Assembly (NCBI GenBank): GCA_934132895.1
Contig: CAKPAG010000007.1
Coordinates: 23-64,022 of the forward strand
Direction: 5' to 3'
DNA: 64,000 bases
Source: an uncultured Clostridia bacterium
Lineage (GTDB): Bacteria; Bacillota; Clostridia; TANB77; CAG-465
Under the pieces are notes generated by a model. It had not been told where the DNA came from and searched no databases. It saw nothing but the letters and a program-made list of their open reading frames with translations. A program made the translations under genes and the position numbers. Shown here piece by piece: positions 49,260 to 64,000 of this stretch. Positions within the stretch are counted from its first letter, which is position 1; every line of letters begins with the position of its first letter.

Positions 49260-49976
49260 ATGCATAAGAATATTATAAAATGTACATGTGTGGCTTTAGT
49301 TATTTTGAGTTTTTGTTTTGCAAATGTATTTGTTTATTCTCATTCAGGAAGAACAGATGCAAATGGAGGACATAGAGATAATAAAAATAAAAGTGGACTT
49401 GGCAGTTATCATTATCATTGTGGAGGATATCCAGCTCATTTGCACGATGGAGGAAAATGTCCGTATAAATCTTCGAATAGTAATGTTACTGAAGAAATTG
49501 AAAAAGTATCTCCAGTAACGTCAACACCAACAACTAATAATACTATAACTGATTATAAAGAAGAAGTGCCTAAAGAGGTAATGGCAAGTGATATAAAAAT
49601 TAATCAAAATCCAAAAGAAATGGAAGTAGGAAGAGAATATAACTTAACGGCAACTATAGAACCAGACAATACCAGTAACAAAAAAATTATATGGAGTACT
49701 AACGATAGTCGTATATTAAAGGTTGATAAAAATGGAAAGGTAACTGCTAGTGCTGCAGGACTTTCAAAAATAACCGCAACAACTGGTGATGGAATAAAAG
49801 ACACAATCGAAATAATAGTTAAAGAATCGGACAAGCCTAAAGTTACAAAATCACAAGAGAGAACAAATACCAATAATAGTGATATGAGTTCTAATTTTAT
49901 AGAAACATTTTTTGGATTTTGTGGAATTGGTGGAATAGGTGCAGTTGTATATGGAATTTATATGAAAATGAAATAA
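49260..49976 (+). CDS. YHYH-motif protein with Big_2 (bacterial Ig-like) domain and C-terminal membrane anchor
   Basis: Signal peptide, GSYHYHCGGYPAHLH, a Big_2-like segment (IWSTNDSRILKVDKNGKVTASAAGLSKITATTGDG) and a C-terminal TM helix. Confidence 0.6.
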   Translation: MHKNIIKCTCVALVILSFCFANVFVYSHSGRTDANGGHRDNKNKSGLGSYHYHCGGYPAHLHDGGKCPYKSSNSNVTEEIEKVSPVTSTPTTNNTITDYKEEVPKEVMASDIKINQNPKEMEVGREYNLTATIEPDNTSNKKIIWSTNDSRILKVDKNGKVTASAAGLSKITATTGDGIKDTIEIIVKESDKPKVTKSQERTNTNNSDMSSNFIETFFGFCGIGGIGAVVYGIYMKMK

Positions 49977-50022
49977 AGCTCATAACCCGAAGGTCCCAGG
50001 TTCGAGTCCTGGCTCCGCAACC
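49977..50022 (+). tRNA. truncated tRNA-fMet: 3' 46 nt only (anticodon loop CTCATAA, variable loop, T-arm, acceptor 3' strand, CCA); the 5' half is absent
   Basis: gctcataacccgaaggtcccaggttcgagtcctggctccgcaacca matches the 3' part of Firmicutes initiator tRNA-Met. The sequence directly upstream is the CDS ending at 49976, so there is no D-arm or 5' acceptor strand. Confidence 0.7.
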
Positions 50023-50102
50023 ATATTTATCAAGGAATTTTTTTAGAAAGAATGTGATAAATATATAGTAGCATAATTATTTGAAAGAGAGGATGGCATA
50101 AA

Positions 50103-51434
50103 TTGGATGAAATTGAATATTCAAAAGAATTTGCTAAAGAATTAATGAATGTTGGTAACTTTGAAACTGCAAAGCAAGTTTTGGAAAAACTATGGAATGA
50201 GTCCTCAAAAGATGACTTGTATTTACTAAATATGTATGGCAGAGTATTGAGAAGAACAAATGAAAGCAATAAGTTTGTTGAAATATGTAGAGATCGAAAA
50301 AAGTTTAAAACATACTTATCAAATAAATATATAAAATCTACACTATGTTGGTGTATATATGATTGCTATATAAAAAAGTTTGAATATAATCCTGATGATG
50401 CAGAAACATTTAATGGCTTTATACAAAGAGCAGAATTTATTGTTGATAATTGCGTTCAAGAAGATAAAGAGAATTGTTTTATTAATCCGTTTGTTTTAAC
50501 AATAAGAAAAGTAATAAAAGTCTATAAAGGCAAAGGTACCAATTATAGAGCAATGTTGAGGTGGATTCAATATCTAGATCCTAATAAATTGCCAGAGGAT
50601 GTTTTTAAATATACTGATGTAAGTGGAATAGAAAGAGAAAATGCTTCCCTAAAAGAGTTTTACTATCAAAATAAATCAGCTGGATTAGAAAAACTTGGAG
50701 AATATTTAGAATGTATTGAATGTTGTGAAGATGCTTTTAGTGTTATACAAAAGTTTCATTATAAAAATCATATTTGGTTAAAAGAAAGGCTGTTATATAG
50801 TAAATGCTTAACTGCAGATAATGAAAAACAAGCTGAGAAGTGTTTGAATGATTACAAAAGATTTGTATCTAAATATAATTATTGGTATATGTACCATAAG
50901 ATATCTCAATATTACTATGTTAATAACAAAATTGATAATGCAATGTTTTATGCATGCAAAGCACTAACAATTAATTTTAATGCGGAAAATATGGTAAAAT
51001 TGATATTAGATTTAGGTTTTATTTTTGAAAATAAGGGATATTTAAGAGAAGCAGAGATATTTTTTCACGCATGTTCATATTACAGAAATAGAAATGGTTG
51101 GATAATAACAGAAGAGCTAAAATATAAAATAGTAGAGTATAAAATTGATGTTAATATAAAGCCTAAGACACAGGAACTTCAAAGAATATGCAGGAATGTT
51201 TTGAATGAACATGATAAGAATAAGAGAATGACAGGAAAGATAAAAAAGATTTTTCTTGATAAATGTTTCGGATTTATATCTTATAATAATTCAGAAGATC
51301 TTTATTTTAAGATAAAAAGTGTAGCTGATATTGATATAATTGCCATAGGAACTGTAGTTACATTTGAAATTGTAGAAGATTTTGAAGGCAGAAAAAGAGC
51401 AATAAAAATAAAAGGAGTGGAATTAAATGGCTGA
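50103..51434 (+). CDS. TPR-like helical-repeat protein with C-terminal cold-shock (OB-fold, nucleic-acid-binding) domain
   Basis: TTG start 7 nt after agagaggatgg. C-terminal GKIKKIFLDKCFGFISYNNSEDLYFKIKSV...GTVVTFEIVED..GRKRAIKIK resembles a CSD (FGFI..., a V.F.I... motif, and G.K.A... at the end). Confidence 0.5.
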   Translation: MDEIEYSKEFAKELMNVGNFETAKQVLEKLWNESSKDDLYLLNMYGRVLRRTNESNKFVEICRDRKKFKTYLSNKYIKSTLCWCIYDCYIKKFEYNPDDAETFNGFIQRAEFIVDNCVQEDKENCFINPFVLTIRKVIKVYKGKGTNYRAMLRWIQYLDPNKLPEDVFKYTDVSGIERENASLKEFYYQNKSAGLEKLGEYLECIECCEDAFSVIQKFHYKNHIWLKERLLYSKCLTADNEKQAEKCLNDYKRFVSKYNYWYMYHKISQYYYVNNKIDNAMFYACKALTINFNAENMVKLILDLGFIFENKGYLREAEIFFHACSYYRNRNGWIITEELKYKIVEYKIDVNIKPKTQELQRICRNVLNEHDKNKRMTGKIKKIFLDKCFGFISYNNSEDLYFKIKSVADIDIIAIGTVVTFEIVEDFEGRKRAIKIKGVELNG

Positions 51435-52467
51435 AATATATATAAATGCAGATGATTTAAATTATTTTATAGGAGAATATGGAAAGATAGATAAATCTTT
51501 TGGAATAAAAAATATATATGAAAAAGGAAATAGAAAGATATGTAATTTTCATTTGAAAGGTAAAGAATGTAAAGTTACATTCTATATAAAAAAGAATACT
51601 GTAAACATGATTCCTGAAGGAAAAAACAAAGATGAATCAAACTTATTAATAGAGTATATAAAATCAAAAGGAATGTCGACAGATGCAGAATCACAGACCG
51701 TTGTATTTAAATTTGAAGAAAAAATGCTACAGAGAATGATAGAATATTTCAATGAAGAAAGGATAGGATTAATTAAAAGTGTACAAGTTGCAGAAAATAG
51801 ATTTAAATTTGCAGGTTATAATAGAGATGAAGTAACATTATCTTTTTATCCTCAAAAGCAGAAAGCTATGATTCAAGGAAAACCATTACAAGCATTCTGT
51901 ATAATTGCAACATATTTATCAGAATTAGATGATTTTAATTTTGATGAAATTGTAGAATTAAATAATAATTTTTCTGGAGGAACTACAGCTAGTTCTATAA
52001 TAAGAGATGAAATGAAAGAAAAGTTAGGAAATGCATATACATATTTATCAGAAGCATTGAAAAAATCAATTTCTGGATCAATAAGTTTATTAAAAGCTAA
52101 AATATATTGTGAAGATTACAAAGGATGTTTAGCAGGAGTTTTTGTTGGATTAGAAGGATATTTAAAAGAAATATTAAAAAACAAATATCATTACAAATTA
52201 CAAAAAACAAACACTTTTTCAATGTTTCATATTGATAGAGAAACTGAAAAATGTCTAATAGATTTAAAATCTGATATTACAGAAAAAGAAAAAATAGAAT
52301 TAAAAAAACTATATAGCTTGTATAGCGACAAGAGAAATGTTTATTTGCACGCTACGATTGATTCATCCCTTACGGCTATAATTCCAAATATAAAAGATGC
52401 TAATAGTTTATCAAACGAGATTATAGATACAATTAAAAATTCATATGATGTGTTTTTCAATAAATAA
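51427..52467 (+). CDS. hypothetical protein with C-terminal R-x4-H (HEPN-like) motif
   Basis: Overlaps the upstream gene by 8 nt (ATGGCTGA). SDKRNVYLHATID lies in a predicted all-helical C-terminal domain. No other recognisable motifs. Confidence 0.45.
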   Translation: MAEIYINADDLNYFIGEYGKIDKSFGIKNIYEKGNRKICNFHLKGKECKVTFYIKKNTVNMIPEGKNKDESNLLIEYIKSKGMSTDAESQTVVFKFEEKMLQRMIEYFNEERIGLIKSVQVAENRFKFAGYNRDEVTLSFYPQKQKAMIQGKPLQAFCIIATYLSELDDFNFDEIVELNNNFSGGTTASSIIRDEMKEKLGNAYTYLSEALKKSISGSISLLKAKIYCEDYKGCLAGVFVGLEGYLKEILKNKYHYKLQKTNTFSMFHIDRETEKCLIDLKSDITEKEKIELKKLYSLYSDKRNVYLHATIDSSLTAIIPNIKDANSLSNEIIDTIKNSYDVFFNK

Positions 52468-52486
52468 AAAGGAAAGGGAAAGTAGT

Positions 52487-52846
52487 ATGATAAAAGATTA
52501 TGAGATTTTCAATTTTAAAGATGAAGATATACAAAATGTAATACTTTTAACATGCACGGAAGATATATACTTTTTACAAGATGATATATATGATAAATTA
52601 TCCAGTTCATTTGGAAGCGAATTTACTGTTTTAGTGGATTTATTTGTAAGAAATGGTTTTTCATATAATAGATTTATTTCTTTAAAGTTTAAAGGAAAGA
52701 ATAATATAAAAACGTTAATAGTAAATCCTAGAGATGTTTCGGAGAAAATAAAATGTGAGATTAGAAAATATTTGAAAAATCATCTTGATATTTTAAATAA
52801 AAGTGCACTTTCAATGAATACAATAAAATTTGTTAAAAGTAGTTAA
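52487..52846 (+). CDS. hypothetical small protein (119 aa)
   Basis: RBS aaaggaaagggaaag lies upstream of the ATG at 52487. The track ORF from 52445 overlaps the previous gene and probably starts too early. Confidence 0.4.
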   Translation: MIKDYEIFNFKDEDIQNVILLTCTEDIYFLQDDIYDKLSSSFGSEFTVLVDLFVRNGFSYNRFISLKFKGKNNIKTLIVNPRDVSEKIKCEIRKYLKNHLDILNKSALSMNTIKFVKSS

Positions 52847-52863
52847 AGAAGTAGTTAAAAAAG

Positions 52864-52895
52864 TAGACGGGATTATAATCGAAATCTCGTCTATT
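52864..52895. terminator. bidirectional terminator-like hairpin between convergent genes
   Basis: agacgggatt...aatctcgtct imperfect palindrome. Confidence 0.4.
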
Positions 52896-54035
52896 TTAAT
52901 TTACTCTTGCAAAAACATCATCCATAACATTAGAAACATTTTTAAATTCATCATCAAAGAAATGAGAATAAATTCTATCAGTCACTTGAACACTTGAATG
53001 ACCAACTTTTCTGCTAATAATTTGAGTTTGAATACATTTTGCAATCATTAAAGAAACATTAGTATGTCTTAAGCCGTGGAATGTAATTCTTTTTAAATTA
53101 TACTTTTTAATTATTTTATCTAGGATTTTAGTAGGAGTATCAGGATGGATATCACCACCAAAATCTGTAGTAAATACTCTATTAGTTCTATTCCATTTAG
53201 ACCAAAGTTGTAATTGCTTTTCGAACTGTTCTTTTTGATACTTTTTAAGAATCTCAATAGTCGTTTTAGTAATGTAATTTACTCTATCACTATTTTCAGC
53301 TTTAGTAGTTTTTTCAAAGATATGTCTATCAATGTATTGCGTAGTTTTATTAATTGTAACTTTTCCAGTTTTGAAATCTATATCATCCCAAGTAAGACCT
53401 GTAAGTTCACCACGTCTACAACCTAAATCTAAAGCTAAAATTATAATTGCTTGATATTTTAAAGGTTCTTTCATAACACATTGTAAAAGCAGATCAACTT
53501 CATCAGGAGAATAACATTGAACATCGGCTCTTGTCCTTTTAGGTTTTTCTATTCTGGTATTAGGATTGTAACTTATATAATCCCATTTTATTGCAACTTC
53601 TAACATATTGTTAATTATTGCATAGTAGCTTTGAATTGTTGTAGGACTATATGGAGTACCTTTTATAGTAATATGTTCATTTCTTAAATAGTTATAAAAT
53701 TTATCTAGAATTTTAGCATTGATGTTTCTTAATTTTACATATCCAATATGCTTATTTATAAGTTTAATTCTATCGCTATAAGTTCTAAATGTTTTAGGTG
53801 ATAGAATATTTTGTTGATAATTTAAATATTCCTCACTTAAATTTTGAATTGTTAAATTGTTTTTCTGTATAAAAGAGCCCTCTCGTAATTGAATTTTCAA
53901 TTTTGCCTCTTGAATAACAGCTTCTTTTTTACCACCATAGAACGTTTCAAAATGTCTAATTTTTTTATCTCCGTTGTAACCTAAAGGAATTTCGATTTGA
54001 TATTTTTTATTACGTATGATTTCTCTTACACTCAT
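52896..54035 (-). CDS. int: tyrosine site-specific integrase (phage integrase family)
   Basis: C-terminal ...ITFHGLRHT...HSSVQVTDRIYSH.. contains the R..H..R...Y catalytic residues. An N-terminal SAM-like domain is present. Confidence 0.9.
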   Translation of the reverse strand: MSVREIIRNKKYQIEIPLGYNGDKKIRHFETFYGGKKEAVIQEAKLKIQLREGSFIQKNNLTIQNLSEEYLNYQQNILSPKTFRTYSDRIKLINKHIGYVKLRNINAKILDKFYNYLRNEHITIKGTPYSPTTIQSYYAIINNMLEVAIKWDYISYNPNTRIEKPKRTRADVQCYSPDEVDLLLQCVMKEPLKYQAIIILALDLGCRRGELTGLTWDDIDFKTGKVTINKTTQYIDRHIFEKTTKAENSDRVNYITKTTIEILKKYQKEQFEKQLQLWSKWNRTNRVFTTDFGGDIHPDTPTKILDKIIKKYNLKRITFHGLRHTNVSLMIAKCIQTQIISRKVGHSSVQVTDRIYSHFFDDEFKNVSNVMDDVFARVN

Positions 54036-54917
54036 TTATTGTCCTTCTTTCTTTATAGTATTTATAAATTTTTTATATTCAGAAGGAAGTTCGTTATTTT
54101 GCCCTAAAATTTCATGAAGATTATCTCTAATTAATTCAGTTATTTGATACTGGCAAAATTGCAAATCTTTATATGTATATTGAAATGATTCAGCACCAAT
54201 TTCGGTTATTTCATTTAATATTTCAAACAATTCATCATCAGATGTAGTAATTTCTTTATTATATGAAACACAATATTTTTTTAGTTTCTTAATATATTTT
54301 TCTAATTCTTTATATGAATTATTATCTAATTTTGATGATGTGTCTCCGTGAATAACGCATCTTTCATATATCTTAAGTTTTTTGTCTAGAATTTTAAATA
54401 TACAATCCAACTCTTTTATATTACTATTTAAGCATTCAGTAAAAAATGGTTTTAATTCTAAAATTGTTGAAAAATATTTAGAACACTCTAATAAATCTTT
54501 TAATATATGATAGTCATTGATATATAATGTGAAATTTTTTAAATAACTAAAACTCTCTAACCATGTATTAAATGCAAGAGGTGGTTCTTTATCTTCTTGT
54601 TTAGAATTATTTGTGAAATCAGTATAAGTTTGTAGATTAATAATTTGTTCTATTGACTTATCAGATAATTTTAATTTTTTTCCAATATCAATAGAAATAT
54701 TAGTTCTATTTTCACATTCTTCATCTAAAAGATATTCGTAAGTAACATCGTAAAAATCTTTTAACATTTTTAGTTGAACTGTGTTTGGAATCCTATCTAA
54801 AGAATCATTTTCATAATTTCTAATAGATTGAATACCAATACTAAGTTTATCAGCTAATACTTGTTGAGTTATTCCTTTTTCTTCTCTTAATAATCTTAAT
54901 TTTTGAGATAATTTCAT
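54036..54917 (-). CDS. XRE-family HTH regulator with a large C-terminal domain (putative island repressor)
   Basis: LRLLREEKGITQQVLADKLSIGIQSIRNYEN is the HTH. Its stop codon abuts the int start. Confidence 0.65.
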   Translation of the reverse strand: MKLSQKLRLLREEKGITQQVLADKLSIGIQSIRNYENDSLDRIPNTVQLKMLKDFYDVTYEYLLDEECENRTNISIDIGKKLKLSDKSIEQIINLQTYTDFTNNSKQEDKEPPLAFNTWLESFSYLKNFTLYINDYHILKDLLECSKYFSTILELKPFFTECLNSNIKELDCIFKILDKKLKIYERCVIHGDTSSKLDNNSYKELEKYIKKLKKYCVSYNKEITTSDDELFEILNEITEIGAESFQYTYKDLQFCQYQITELIRDNLHEILGQNNELPSEYKKFINTIKKEGQ

Positions 54918-55282: not shown

Positions 55283-55477
55283 ATGGAAGATGTATTTAAT
55301 GTAAAGGAACTTGCAAGATATCTTCGTTGTAGTGAATCAACTATTAGAAAGCTATTAAGGAATAATAAGATTCCTAGCTTTCGAGTTGCATGTAGAATAT
55401 TTTTTAAGAAAAAGTTAATAGATGCATGGATTAATAATCAATGTTTAGAAAATTGTGAGGTGATGAGATATGAATAA
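55283..55477 (+). CDS. excisionase/Xis-like helix-turn-helix DNA-binding protein
   Basis: VKELARYLRCSESTIRKLLRNNKIPSFRV matches the HTH_17/excisionase motif. Confidence 0.6.
   Translation: MEDVFNVKELARYLRCSESTIRKLLRNNKIPSFRVACRIFFKKKLIDAWINNQCLENCEVMRYE

Positions 55478-58607: not shown

Positions 58608-58615
<8 letters not shown>
57047..58615 (+). CDS. hsdM: type I restriction-modification system, DNA methyltransferase subunit M
   Basis: N6-adenine methyltransferase motifs: DPCCGSGGLL (motif I) and IVSNPPYS (NPPY, motif IV). ATG at 57047 follows ggggga. Confidence 0.9.
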
Positions 58616-59835
<1,220 letters not shown>

Positions 59836-63046: not shown

Positions 63047-64000
63047 ATGAAATTAGAAGAATATGATGCTGGAAAATATGTGCAAATGAAAGATTATAAA
63101 GCATTTATTCCAAGTAAGATTAATTACAATTGGGAATGGTCAGATACAAAATTAAATAAATTGTTATCTGAAGCCGACCGTCAAATAGGAGAATTAAATG
63201 CATACTCATTGTTAATACCAAATGTTGACTTATATATTAAAATGCATGTGAAAATTGAAGCAAACAAATCAAGTAGAATAGAAGGAACAAGAACAACTGT
63301 TGATGAAGACTTGCTAGATATAACTGATATCAATCCGGAAAAAAGAGATGATTGGCAAGAAGTTCAAAATTATGTAAAAGCAACAAATTACGGTGTTGAA
63401 AGAATAAAAGATGGTTTTCCTGTATGTACACGATTGATTAGAGAAATGCATAAAATTTTAATGAGTGGTGTAAGAGGGGAGAAGAAAACACCAGGAGAAT
63501 TTAGAACATCTCAAAACTGAATTGGAGGAAGTATGCCAAGTACAGCAGTATATGTTCCACCTCCACATACAGAGATGTCAGATTGTTTAACAGATTTTGA
63601 AAAATTTATTAATAATGATGAAATTGATACACCAGATTTAATTAAGATTGCTATAATACATTATCAATTTGAATCAATTCATCCTTTTCTAGATGGTAAT
63701 GGGAGAATTGGTAGATTGTTGATACCGTTATACATTCAAAGTAAAGGAATATTGGACAAACCTTGTTTATATATATCTGATTATATTGAAAAAAATAAAG
63801 ATACATACTATGATACTTTAACAAGAGTAAGAACACATAACGATATGATTGGATGGATTAAATTTTTCTTAGAAGCAATAATAGACACGTCAAAAACTGC
63901 TAAAGAAAAATTTAGAAAAGTAGTTGAATTTACAAGAGAAATGAATGAAGTAATTATGACTATGTCTGTAAAACCAGAAAATGCCAAAAAGGTATTAGAA
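63047..64000 (+). pseudogene. Fic/Doc-family protein with an in-frame TGA (63518-63520) at a conserved Trp; partial at the window end
   Basis: The Fic N-terminal region (ANKSSRIEGTRTT) ...GEFRTSQN*IGGSMPSTAVYVPPP... then continues in the same frame through the FIC motif HPFLDGNGRIGRLL. Homologues have W at the stop position. Confidence 0.7.

Follow-up and report, generated by a model that had tools for sequence, protein, structure and literature searches.

What does a cassette of three tightly packed genes do on the integrative island that carries it, and is it a new kind of defence system? The cassette in question lies at positions 50103-52846 of a 64,000-nucleotide stretch of DNA from an uncultured Clostridia bacterium (contig CAKPAG010000007.1, positions 23 to 64,022; the whole stretch is hereafter the window). 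Its three genes share one strand, with the 3' fragment of a tRNA-Met gene on one side and a convergent tyrosine integrase on the other. An earlier note, made from the letters alone, had pictured the products as a sensor, a putative HEPN effector and a partner protein, and had stated that none of the three matched a named defence family. We are highly confident that they are an RnlA toxin (gene 2), an RnlB antitoxin (gene 3) and a partner protein in which TPR-like repeats are joined to a cold-shock domain (CSD; gene 1). We also consider it rather probable that the cassette is a three-gene RNA-targeting toxin-antitoxin or anti-phage module on an integrative island, of the TOTE type (TPR, OB, TATA-binding-like protein [TBP], Effector), with RnlA as the effector and gene 1 as an obligate third partner.

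The protein of gene 2 (51427..52467, plus strand) is a toxin of the RnlA/LsoA type (RNase LS). Pfam placed RnlA_toxin_N (6.5e-3, a weak match), RnlA_toxin (1.1e-7) and RnlA-toxin_DBD (5.5e-14) on it in this order, and sequence comparison with the PDB matched LsoA (5hy3, 5e-7) and also RnlA. In an AlphaFold model built with 30 homologues (predicted local distance difference test, pLDDT, 87), two beta-alpha-beta4-alpha repeats at amino acids (aa) 1-80 and 88-166 are followed by a helical domain, the HEPN domain at aa 172-346. Foldseek aligned this model with full-length E. coli RnlA (4i8o_A) at an E value of 8e-15 and a TM-score of 0.63. Both the order of the Pfam domains and the model thus reproduce the three-domain architecture of RnlA, NTD(TBP1)-NRD(TBP2)-HEPN(DBD), of which the NTD and NRD have been described as TBP-like in the E. 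coli protein (PMC8266594).

The earlier note had pointed to the sequence RNVYLH in gene 2 (52333..52350, plus strand) as an Rx4-6H signature of HEPN RNases. This sequence contains R303 and H308, and the partner residue E243 is encoded at 52153-52155. The three residues align with E258, R318 and H323 of E. coli RnlA (sequence taken from MG1655), which are required for its RNase activity and toxicity (PMC8266594), and they are invariant in 107 of 107 distinct members of the clade. Because RNVYLH aligns with the catalytic residues of E. coli RnlA and does not vary within the clade, we accept it as the Rx4H catalytic motif of a HEPN domain.

Gene 3 (52487..52846, plus strand) encodes an RnlB-type antitoxin, matching Pfam RnlB_antitoxin at 3.5e-12 and the RnlB chain of the RnlA:RnlB crystal complex (PDB 6y2p_C) at 1e-7. 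From the homology of genes 2 and 3 to E. coli RnlA and RnlB it follows that gene 3 is an antitoxin and not an unknown partner. The general picture of sensor, HEPN effector and partner is therefore kept, with the third member now named. The structure and profile searches that had been proposed as a check bore out the HEPN fold of gene 2 through its match to RnlA, and the same matches to RnlA and RnlB spoke against novelty.

Gene 1 (50103..51434, plus strand) encodes a TPR-like solenoid (aa 1-372) followed by a C-terminal cold-shock OB fold (aa 376-438), the unusual architecture that had been read from its sequence before. Pfam recognised DUF7017 (3e-6) and CSD (6.7e-6), both near their cut-offs. 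Over its full length the protein matched the PADLOC model PDLC01170, 'TPR repeats containing protein fused to cold shock-like domain (OB-fold)', at 5e-41. With this match, DUF7017 on gene 1, and RnlA and RnlB as its neighbours, the statement that no named family is represented in the cassette no longer holds. A predicted model (pLDDT 90) has helical repeats at residues 8-372 with a beta-hairpin insert at 168-180, and a five-stranded barrel at 376-438. The cold-shock domain (51228..51416, plus strand) carries an RNP1-like FGFI and an RNP2-like LYFKI; it matched PDB 2k5n at 3e-5 and superposed on it with a TM-score of 0.75 over 69 columns. Within the OB fold G378, G390, I392 and F402 are invariant, and F391 and Y401 are conserved in at least 90% of the sequences; the face of the protein that binds nucleic acid is intact.

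The most conserved patch of the gene 1 family lies outside the OB fold. It consists of the hairpin (aa 168-180) and the motif D-x2-G-x2-RE-x-AS-x-KEFYYQ (aa 172-189; 50604..50663, plus strand), with strands at 168-171 and 177-180 in the model. D172, G175, R178, E179, S182, K184, E185 and Y187 are invariant, and the serine and glutamate of the signature are about 90% conserved even among distant relatives. A further set of residues, C82, C84, C204, C208, H219 and C235 (50346-50354, 50712-50726, 50757-50759, 50805-50807), is invariant or nearly so within the RnlA-linked clade and is not conserved across the wider family; judged from the alignment, these residues may form a metal site or play a structural role. 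Searches found no homologue of gene 1 among the plasmids of PLSDB or the viral contigs of IMG/VR, a phage collection gave one match at 22% identity, and no PHROG family matched genes 1 or 3.

If gene 1 belongs functionally with the toxin-antitoxin pair, the three genes should travel together, and a check of conserved synteny had been suggested. About 30 distinct loci with gene 1 relatives (34-87% identity) were covered, from nine look-ups and 24 species genomes; RnlA and RnlB came next in each of them wherever the contig was long enough, and defence genes and mobile elements were found as neighbours. A word-indexed search returned 22 gene 1 clusters. An RnlA-like gene directly followed gene 1 in all eight look-ups at close and middle distance (34-64% identity, plus P0046), and RnlB came next after RnlA wherever the contig of these eight extended far enough. 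A scan of one genome per GTDB species yielded 24 gene 1 loci, nearly all in metagenome-assembled genomes of Clostridia or other Bacillota; comparing the window proteins with all open reading frames (ORFs) by phmmer, we found the same three-gene order in every locus that was long enough.

We also approached the linkage from the toxin. A metagenome scan starting from gene 2 gave 58 loci of the RnlA clade. Where at least 1400 nt of upstream sequence was available, gene 1 was the adjacent upstream gene in 41 of 44 loci, and RnlB came downstream in every one of the 53 loci that had 450 nt or more on that side. In one exception (L053, 708-2883) a Mu-type transposase (rve, Mu-transpos_C) and a TniB-like ATPase occupy the place of gene 1 next to an intact RnlA-RnlB pair; this locus is a natural gene 1 knockout through transposon insertion. 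Genes 1 and 2 overlap by as much as 53 nt or lie up to 4 nt apart (-53 to +4 nt), and the pairwise distances of the three proteins correlate with r = 0.87-0.92 across 27 distinct loci. The triad is a strict, translationally coupled module.

The architecture of this module has been named before. As cited in bioRxiv 10.1101/2025.09.15.676423, TOTE systems (TPR, OB, TBP, Effector) were named by Aravind, Iyer and Burroughs in 2022, and they often carry RNase H domains. The name stems from comparative genomics. The definition used here was taken from that citing preprint and from the title of Pfam family PF22721, 'TATA-binding-like protein domain of the TOTE conflict systems'. It comprises TPR repeats and an OB fold in one protein, a TBP domain fused to an effector, and conserved adjacency of the two genes. 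Gene 1 combines TPR repeats with an OB (cold-shock) fold. In gene 2 the HEPN domain follows two TBP-like repeats, which were recognised by their fold, two beta-alpha-beta4-alpha units in a model that superposes on RnlA. The genes of the TPR-OB and the TBP-effector protein are neighbours across the loci compared. As RnlA is, by fold, a TBP-TBP-HEPN effector protein, the cassette fits the TOTE definition as given in these sources, with RnlB added as antitoxin. We conclude that gene 1 is probably the 'TPR-OB' component of a TOTE-type system. Going by these sources, the three-part combination of TPR-OB and TBP-effector already has its name, the novelty claimed for the cassette falls away, and the locus is an unannotated member of a predicted family.

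The wider family of gene 1 shows other choices of effector. An exhaustive profile search gave 316 representatives at E<=1e-30 and 957 at E<=1e-10 (clusters at 50% identity), so the clade of the window is a branch of a larger family, whose partner diversity was sampled by four look-ups. At P0064 the gene 1 relative overlaps by a few nucleotides with an upstream SF1 helicase whose C-terminus consists of two copies of PF22721 (5.7e-38). A high-GC gut contig labelled as phage (L038, 246-4976; MT837669.1) encodes a 22%-identical TPR-CSD protein and then a UvrD helicase of 1216 aa. The helicase carries two hybrid-binding domains of the RNase H1 N-terminal type and, as a C-terminal extension, about 300 aa without Pfam match; its best PADLOC match was 'RTasHel' (DRT). 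At P0087 a HEPN_Swt1 domain is fused directly to TPR-DUF7017-CSD. Because the constant neighbour or fusion partner across these clades is a TBP-bearing or HEPN effector, the partner of gene 1 in the window is taken to be the TBP/effector protein rather than RnlB.

How would such a module work? The three proteins would be made from one transcript in a fixed ratio and could assemble into one complex, in which the TPR-CSD protein would dock on the TBP-like N-terminal domains of RnlA. Its OB fold would bind single-stranded nucleic acid, and its TPR groove possibly a protein or peptide. By analogy with E. coli, RnlB would hold the HEPN dimer shut. Gene 1 would couple an infection cue to the RNase activity of RnlA or to its choice of substrate; upon infection-driven shut-off of the host, a presumably labile RnlB would decay, RnlA would cut mRNA, and growth of phage and host would stop. 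The last steps follow the established biology of RnlAB, where the HEPN dimer is held in check by RnlB and the RNase is set free once the antitoxin is lost in the course of phage-induced shut-off (PMC8266594; PMC3710099). Phage defence by the cassette in its present host is likewise suggested by this analogy. A role of gene 1 as sensor or gatekeeper is tentative, at somewhat less than an even chance. More doubtful still is the specific proposal that gene 1 gates RnlA by docking on its N-terminal TBP-like domain, with the OB fold recognising single-stranded nucleic acid of the phage or recruiting substrate RNA. We know of no function assigned to this N-terminal domain since the first RnlA structure appeared.

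Several points weigh against a TOTE-type module with gene 1 as its obligate partner. E. coli RnlAB works without any TPR-CSD protein, and gene 1 is therefore not mechanistically required for RNase/antitoxin pairs in general. Gene 2 has no Pfam TBP-TOTE match, and alignment of the RnlA clade with a TBP-TOTE region by hhalign gave no signal; its TBP domains are consequently assigned by fold only. R255 of E. coli RnlA, which serves substrate binding and activity, is replaced by V240 in gene 2, the position being K or R in 83 of 107 relatives. Across the clade (residues 232 and 240, 52120-52146), T or S at 232 goes with K or R at 240 in 83 sequences, K232 goes with V or I at 240 in 23, and one of the 107 has a basic residue at neither position. 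From this covariation the basic residue equivalent to R255 may have been relocated to K232 and the loss compensated, although the pattern could also stem from a single evolutionary event. Finally, our literature search found no paper that describes or tests a TPR-CSD/RnlA/RnlB triad, and no experimental study of the TOTE family.

The most serious rival holds that the cassette stabilises the island as a plain RnlAB addiction module, with gene 1 acting only as a regulator whose CSD binds the mRNA of the operon or single-stranded promoter DNA to set toxin and antitoxin levels, and with no sensing of phage. CSD proteins bind mRNA, gene 1 stands first in the operon and is translationally coupled, and the module resides on integrative elements. 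Moreover, Pfam recognised no DNA-binding domain in RnlB, which makes another regulator plausible. However, distant relatives of gene 1 pair with helicase-TBP effectors in loci without RnlB, or are fused to HEPN, which indicates a partnership at the protein level rather than operon-specific regulation, and a conserved TPR scaffold of 370 aa with an invariant hairpin motif exceeds the needs of an RNA-binding regulator. We regard this explanation as unlikely. Gene 1 could instead act on the side of the antitoxin: as a TPR chaperone or adaptor it would keep RnlB stable or hand it to a protease, like SecB in toxin-antitoxin-chaperone (TAC) systems. Such a role is improbable, the constant partner of the gene 1 family being the effector. 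A TAC-like system proper was rejected, as gene 1 consists of TPR and CSD and had no SecB match.

The idea with which the locus was first approached, a previously unknown defence system without known relatives, draws on the lack of PADLOC models for genes 2 and 3. A variant would be a retron-derived system with a cold-shock effector like that of Se72, as the CSD of gene 1 weakly resembles the Se72 effector family (NCBIfam, 24 bits) and PADLOC CSD_V. Genes 2 and 3 are, however, RnlA and RnlB by sequence and fold, and the name TOTE, as far as the sources available show, already covers the combination of TPR-OB and TBP-effector. The Se72 score is far under the 82-bit cut-off, and no reverse transcriptase was present among the Pfam-annotated neighbours at nine loci, so that the retron link was rejected. 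For practical purposes, a wholly new system and a retron derivative are both excluded. The TOTE-type module with RnlA as effector thus remains the reading that we prefer.

The gene models agree with public records, in which identical products of 443, 346 and 119 aa are present, all without names; the coordinates and the packing on one strand had been given correctly before. Gene 1 (50103-51434, plus strand, 443 aa) starts with TTG preceded by the ribosome-binding site GAGAGGA. Gene 2 (51427-52467, plus strand, 346 aa) starts with an ATG within ATGGCTGA, overlapping the end of gene 1, stop codon included, by 8 nt, and the translational coupling that had been deduced from this overlap is accepted. 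Gene 3 (52487-52846, plus strand, 119 aa) begins 19 nt after the stop of gene 2 with GGAAAGGGA ahead of its start; if translation began at another ATG, at 52445, the product would have 133 aa. Chance ORFs were ruled out, each of the three having tens of homologues with identities down to 34-39%. A promoter-like site, TTTAGA-16-TATAGT (50042..50069, plus strand), lies upstream of gene 1 and is weak evidence, sites of this kind being no more frequent in this AT-rich region than expected from shuffled sequence. Between gene 3 and the convergent integrase, a terminator-like hairpin (52860..52897, plus strand) with a 15-pair stem and a following T run probably marks the end of the operon; one such site was found against 0.5 expected in shuffled sequence, which is above expectation.

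The mobile setting of the cassette, a defence island bounded by a tRNA remnant and an integrase, was confirmed. The segment at 49978..50023 (plus strand) corresponds to the last 46 nt of a tRNA-Met(CAT) gene, from the anticodon loop to CCA at the 3' end, and is 93.5% identical to positions 201-246 of a plasmid-collection record found by BLAST (L044), in which ARAGORN calls a tRNA-Met(cat) at 171-246. The 5' 30 nt are gone, and the fragment begins 1 nt past the stop codon of a Big_2 surface-protein gene. The fragment occurs once in the window, where ARAGORN found no complete tRNA gene, and Rfam did not match the shortened piece. The fragment is a junction marker of the integrative island. It stands (49974-50023) in sense orientation with the island 3' of it, and the other island end lies outside the window; this arrangement fits an island-proximal junction whose tRNA 5' half has been lost, not the usual distal remnant.

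The tyrosine integrase (52896..54035, minus strand; Pfam Phage_integrase, 1.3e-21) belongs to the island context and lies outside the three-gene system. Beyond it lie a cI-like HTH gene (54036-54917, minus strand; Pfam HTH_19/HTH_3) and an Xis/AlpA-like gene (55283-55477, plus strand; Pfam HTH_17). By Pfam, the further cargo comprises a type I restriction-modification (R-M) system with hsdM, a split hsdS and hsdR, and a Fic_N fragment. A (CA)n dinucleotide run, translated as THTHTH in either frame, divides hsdS (58608-59835) into two overlapping ORFs, and the central conserved region of hsdS contains three tandem 12-nt units encoding TAEL; the repeats lie at 59100-59135 and about 59207-59239. 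The product appears to be a phase-variable specificity subunit, and its spacer length may vary too. The Fic ORF (63047-63520, 157 aa) comprises the Fic_N domain only and ends ahead of the catalytic Fic domain, probably through truncation or a frameshift.

Related loci share this setting. One of them (L003) has the same backbone of triad, integrase, HTH and HTH_17 as the window, but type III R-M cargo. As the triad neighbours at the inspected loci include type I and type III R-M systems, GmrSD, a DUF4435-AAA protein, integrases, a relaxase and a primase, we consider the triad to be cargo of mobile defence islands. The closest relatives beyond the window's own lineage (L001, 317-2270, and L002, 3752-5705; 64% identity) carry upstream of the triad a DUF3427/NOV_C gene, a 102-aa gene, a MazG-like gene and an MGMT-like (DNA_binding_1) gene, and downstream of it a type I R-M system without integrase. 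A Big_2 gene is found near the triad in L002, as in the window, which suggests a recurrent chromosomal hotspot.

Our findings show that in one large clade, mostly of gut and anaerobic Clostridia, RnlA-RnlB is essentially always preceded by a co-evolving TPR-cold-shock gene. The pairing of gene 1 relatives with other TBP-bearing effectors provides a concrete hypothesis for the role of TBP domains, and with its three genes the triad is a compact model for the TOTE family. In databases, the unnamed products of the three genes can now receive names. If gene 1 does gate RnlA, the two-gene RnlAB of E. coli would appear as a simplified relative of a three-part system coupled to a sensor, and mechanistic work on the wider TOTE family, several hundred protein clusters, would gain its first point of entry.

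E. coli RnlA-RnlB is a classic anti-T4 toxin-antitoxin pair of type II and a reference defence system, as is the related plasmid pair LsoA-LsoB an anti-T4 system of type II. Both these pairs and the window have a toxin in which, by fold, a C-terminal HEPN domain follows two TBP-like domains, and they share its catalytic residues, E...Rx4H; the toxin gene comes first, with an RnlB-family antitoxin gene directly downstream and tight or overlapping junctions, and RnlA-RnlB, too, is carried on mobile DNA (CP4-57 in K-12). In contrast to the window with its obligate upstream TPR-CSD gene, E. coli has none, and yfjM lies upstream on the opposite strand. Gene 2 is only about 15% identical to E. coli RnlA in the structural alignment and has V at the R255 position together with the co-varying K232, and the hosts here are Clostridia and other Bacillota instead of Enterobacteria.

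Two other systems resemble the triad in outline. In TAC systems, too, the operon of a toxin-antitoxin pair holds a third gene devoted to it; that third gene, however, is a SecB-like chaperone that acts on the antitoxin, whereas gene 1 relatives occur without an antitoxin. In the animal antiviral STAND proteins SAMD9/SAMD9L, by analogy only, a C-terminal TPR array and an OB fold form the regulatory part of an RNA-targeting effector, and the TPR-OB region of SAMD9 folds back and moves upon activation (bioRxiv 10.64898/2026.02.02.703423). SAMD9 is one giant polypeptide with an NTPase switch, whereas in the window the TPR-OB part is a separate protein and no NTPase is present.

A further comparison is with TOTE itself, to which TALON systems have been named as related. 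As in TOTE systems, so far as the sources at hand describe them, a TPR-cold-shock protein is encoded in the window beside a protein with domains that are TBP-like by fold and an effector, and DUF7017 occurs both on gene 1 and on relatives paired with Pfam TBP-TOTE helicases. The effector distinguishes them: in the window it is an RnlA HEPN RNase accompanied by the RnlB antitoxin, whereas the relatives use SF1 or UvrD helicases or HEPN_Swt1. The locus itself is an ordinary member of a predicted family, not a new kind of system.

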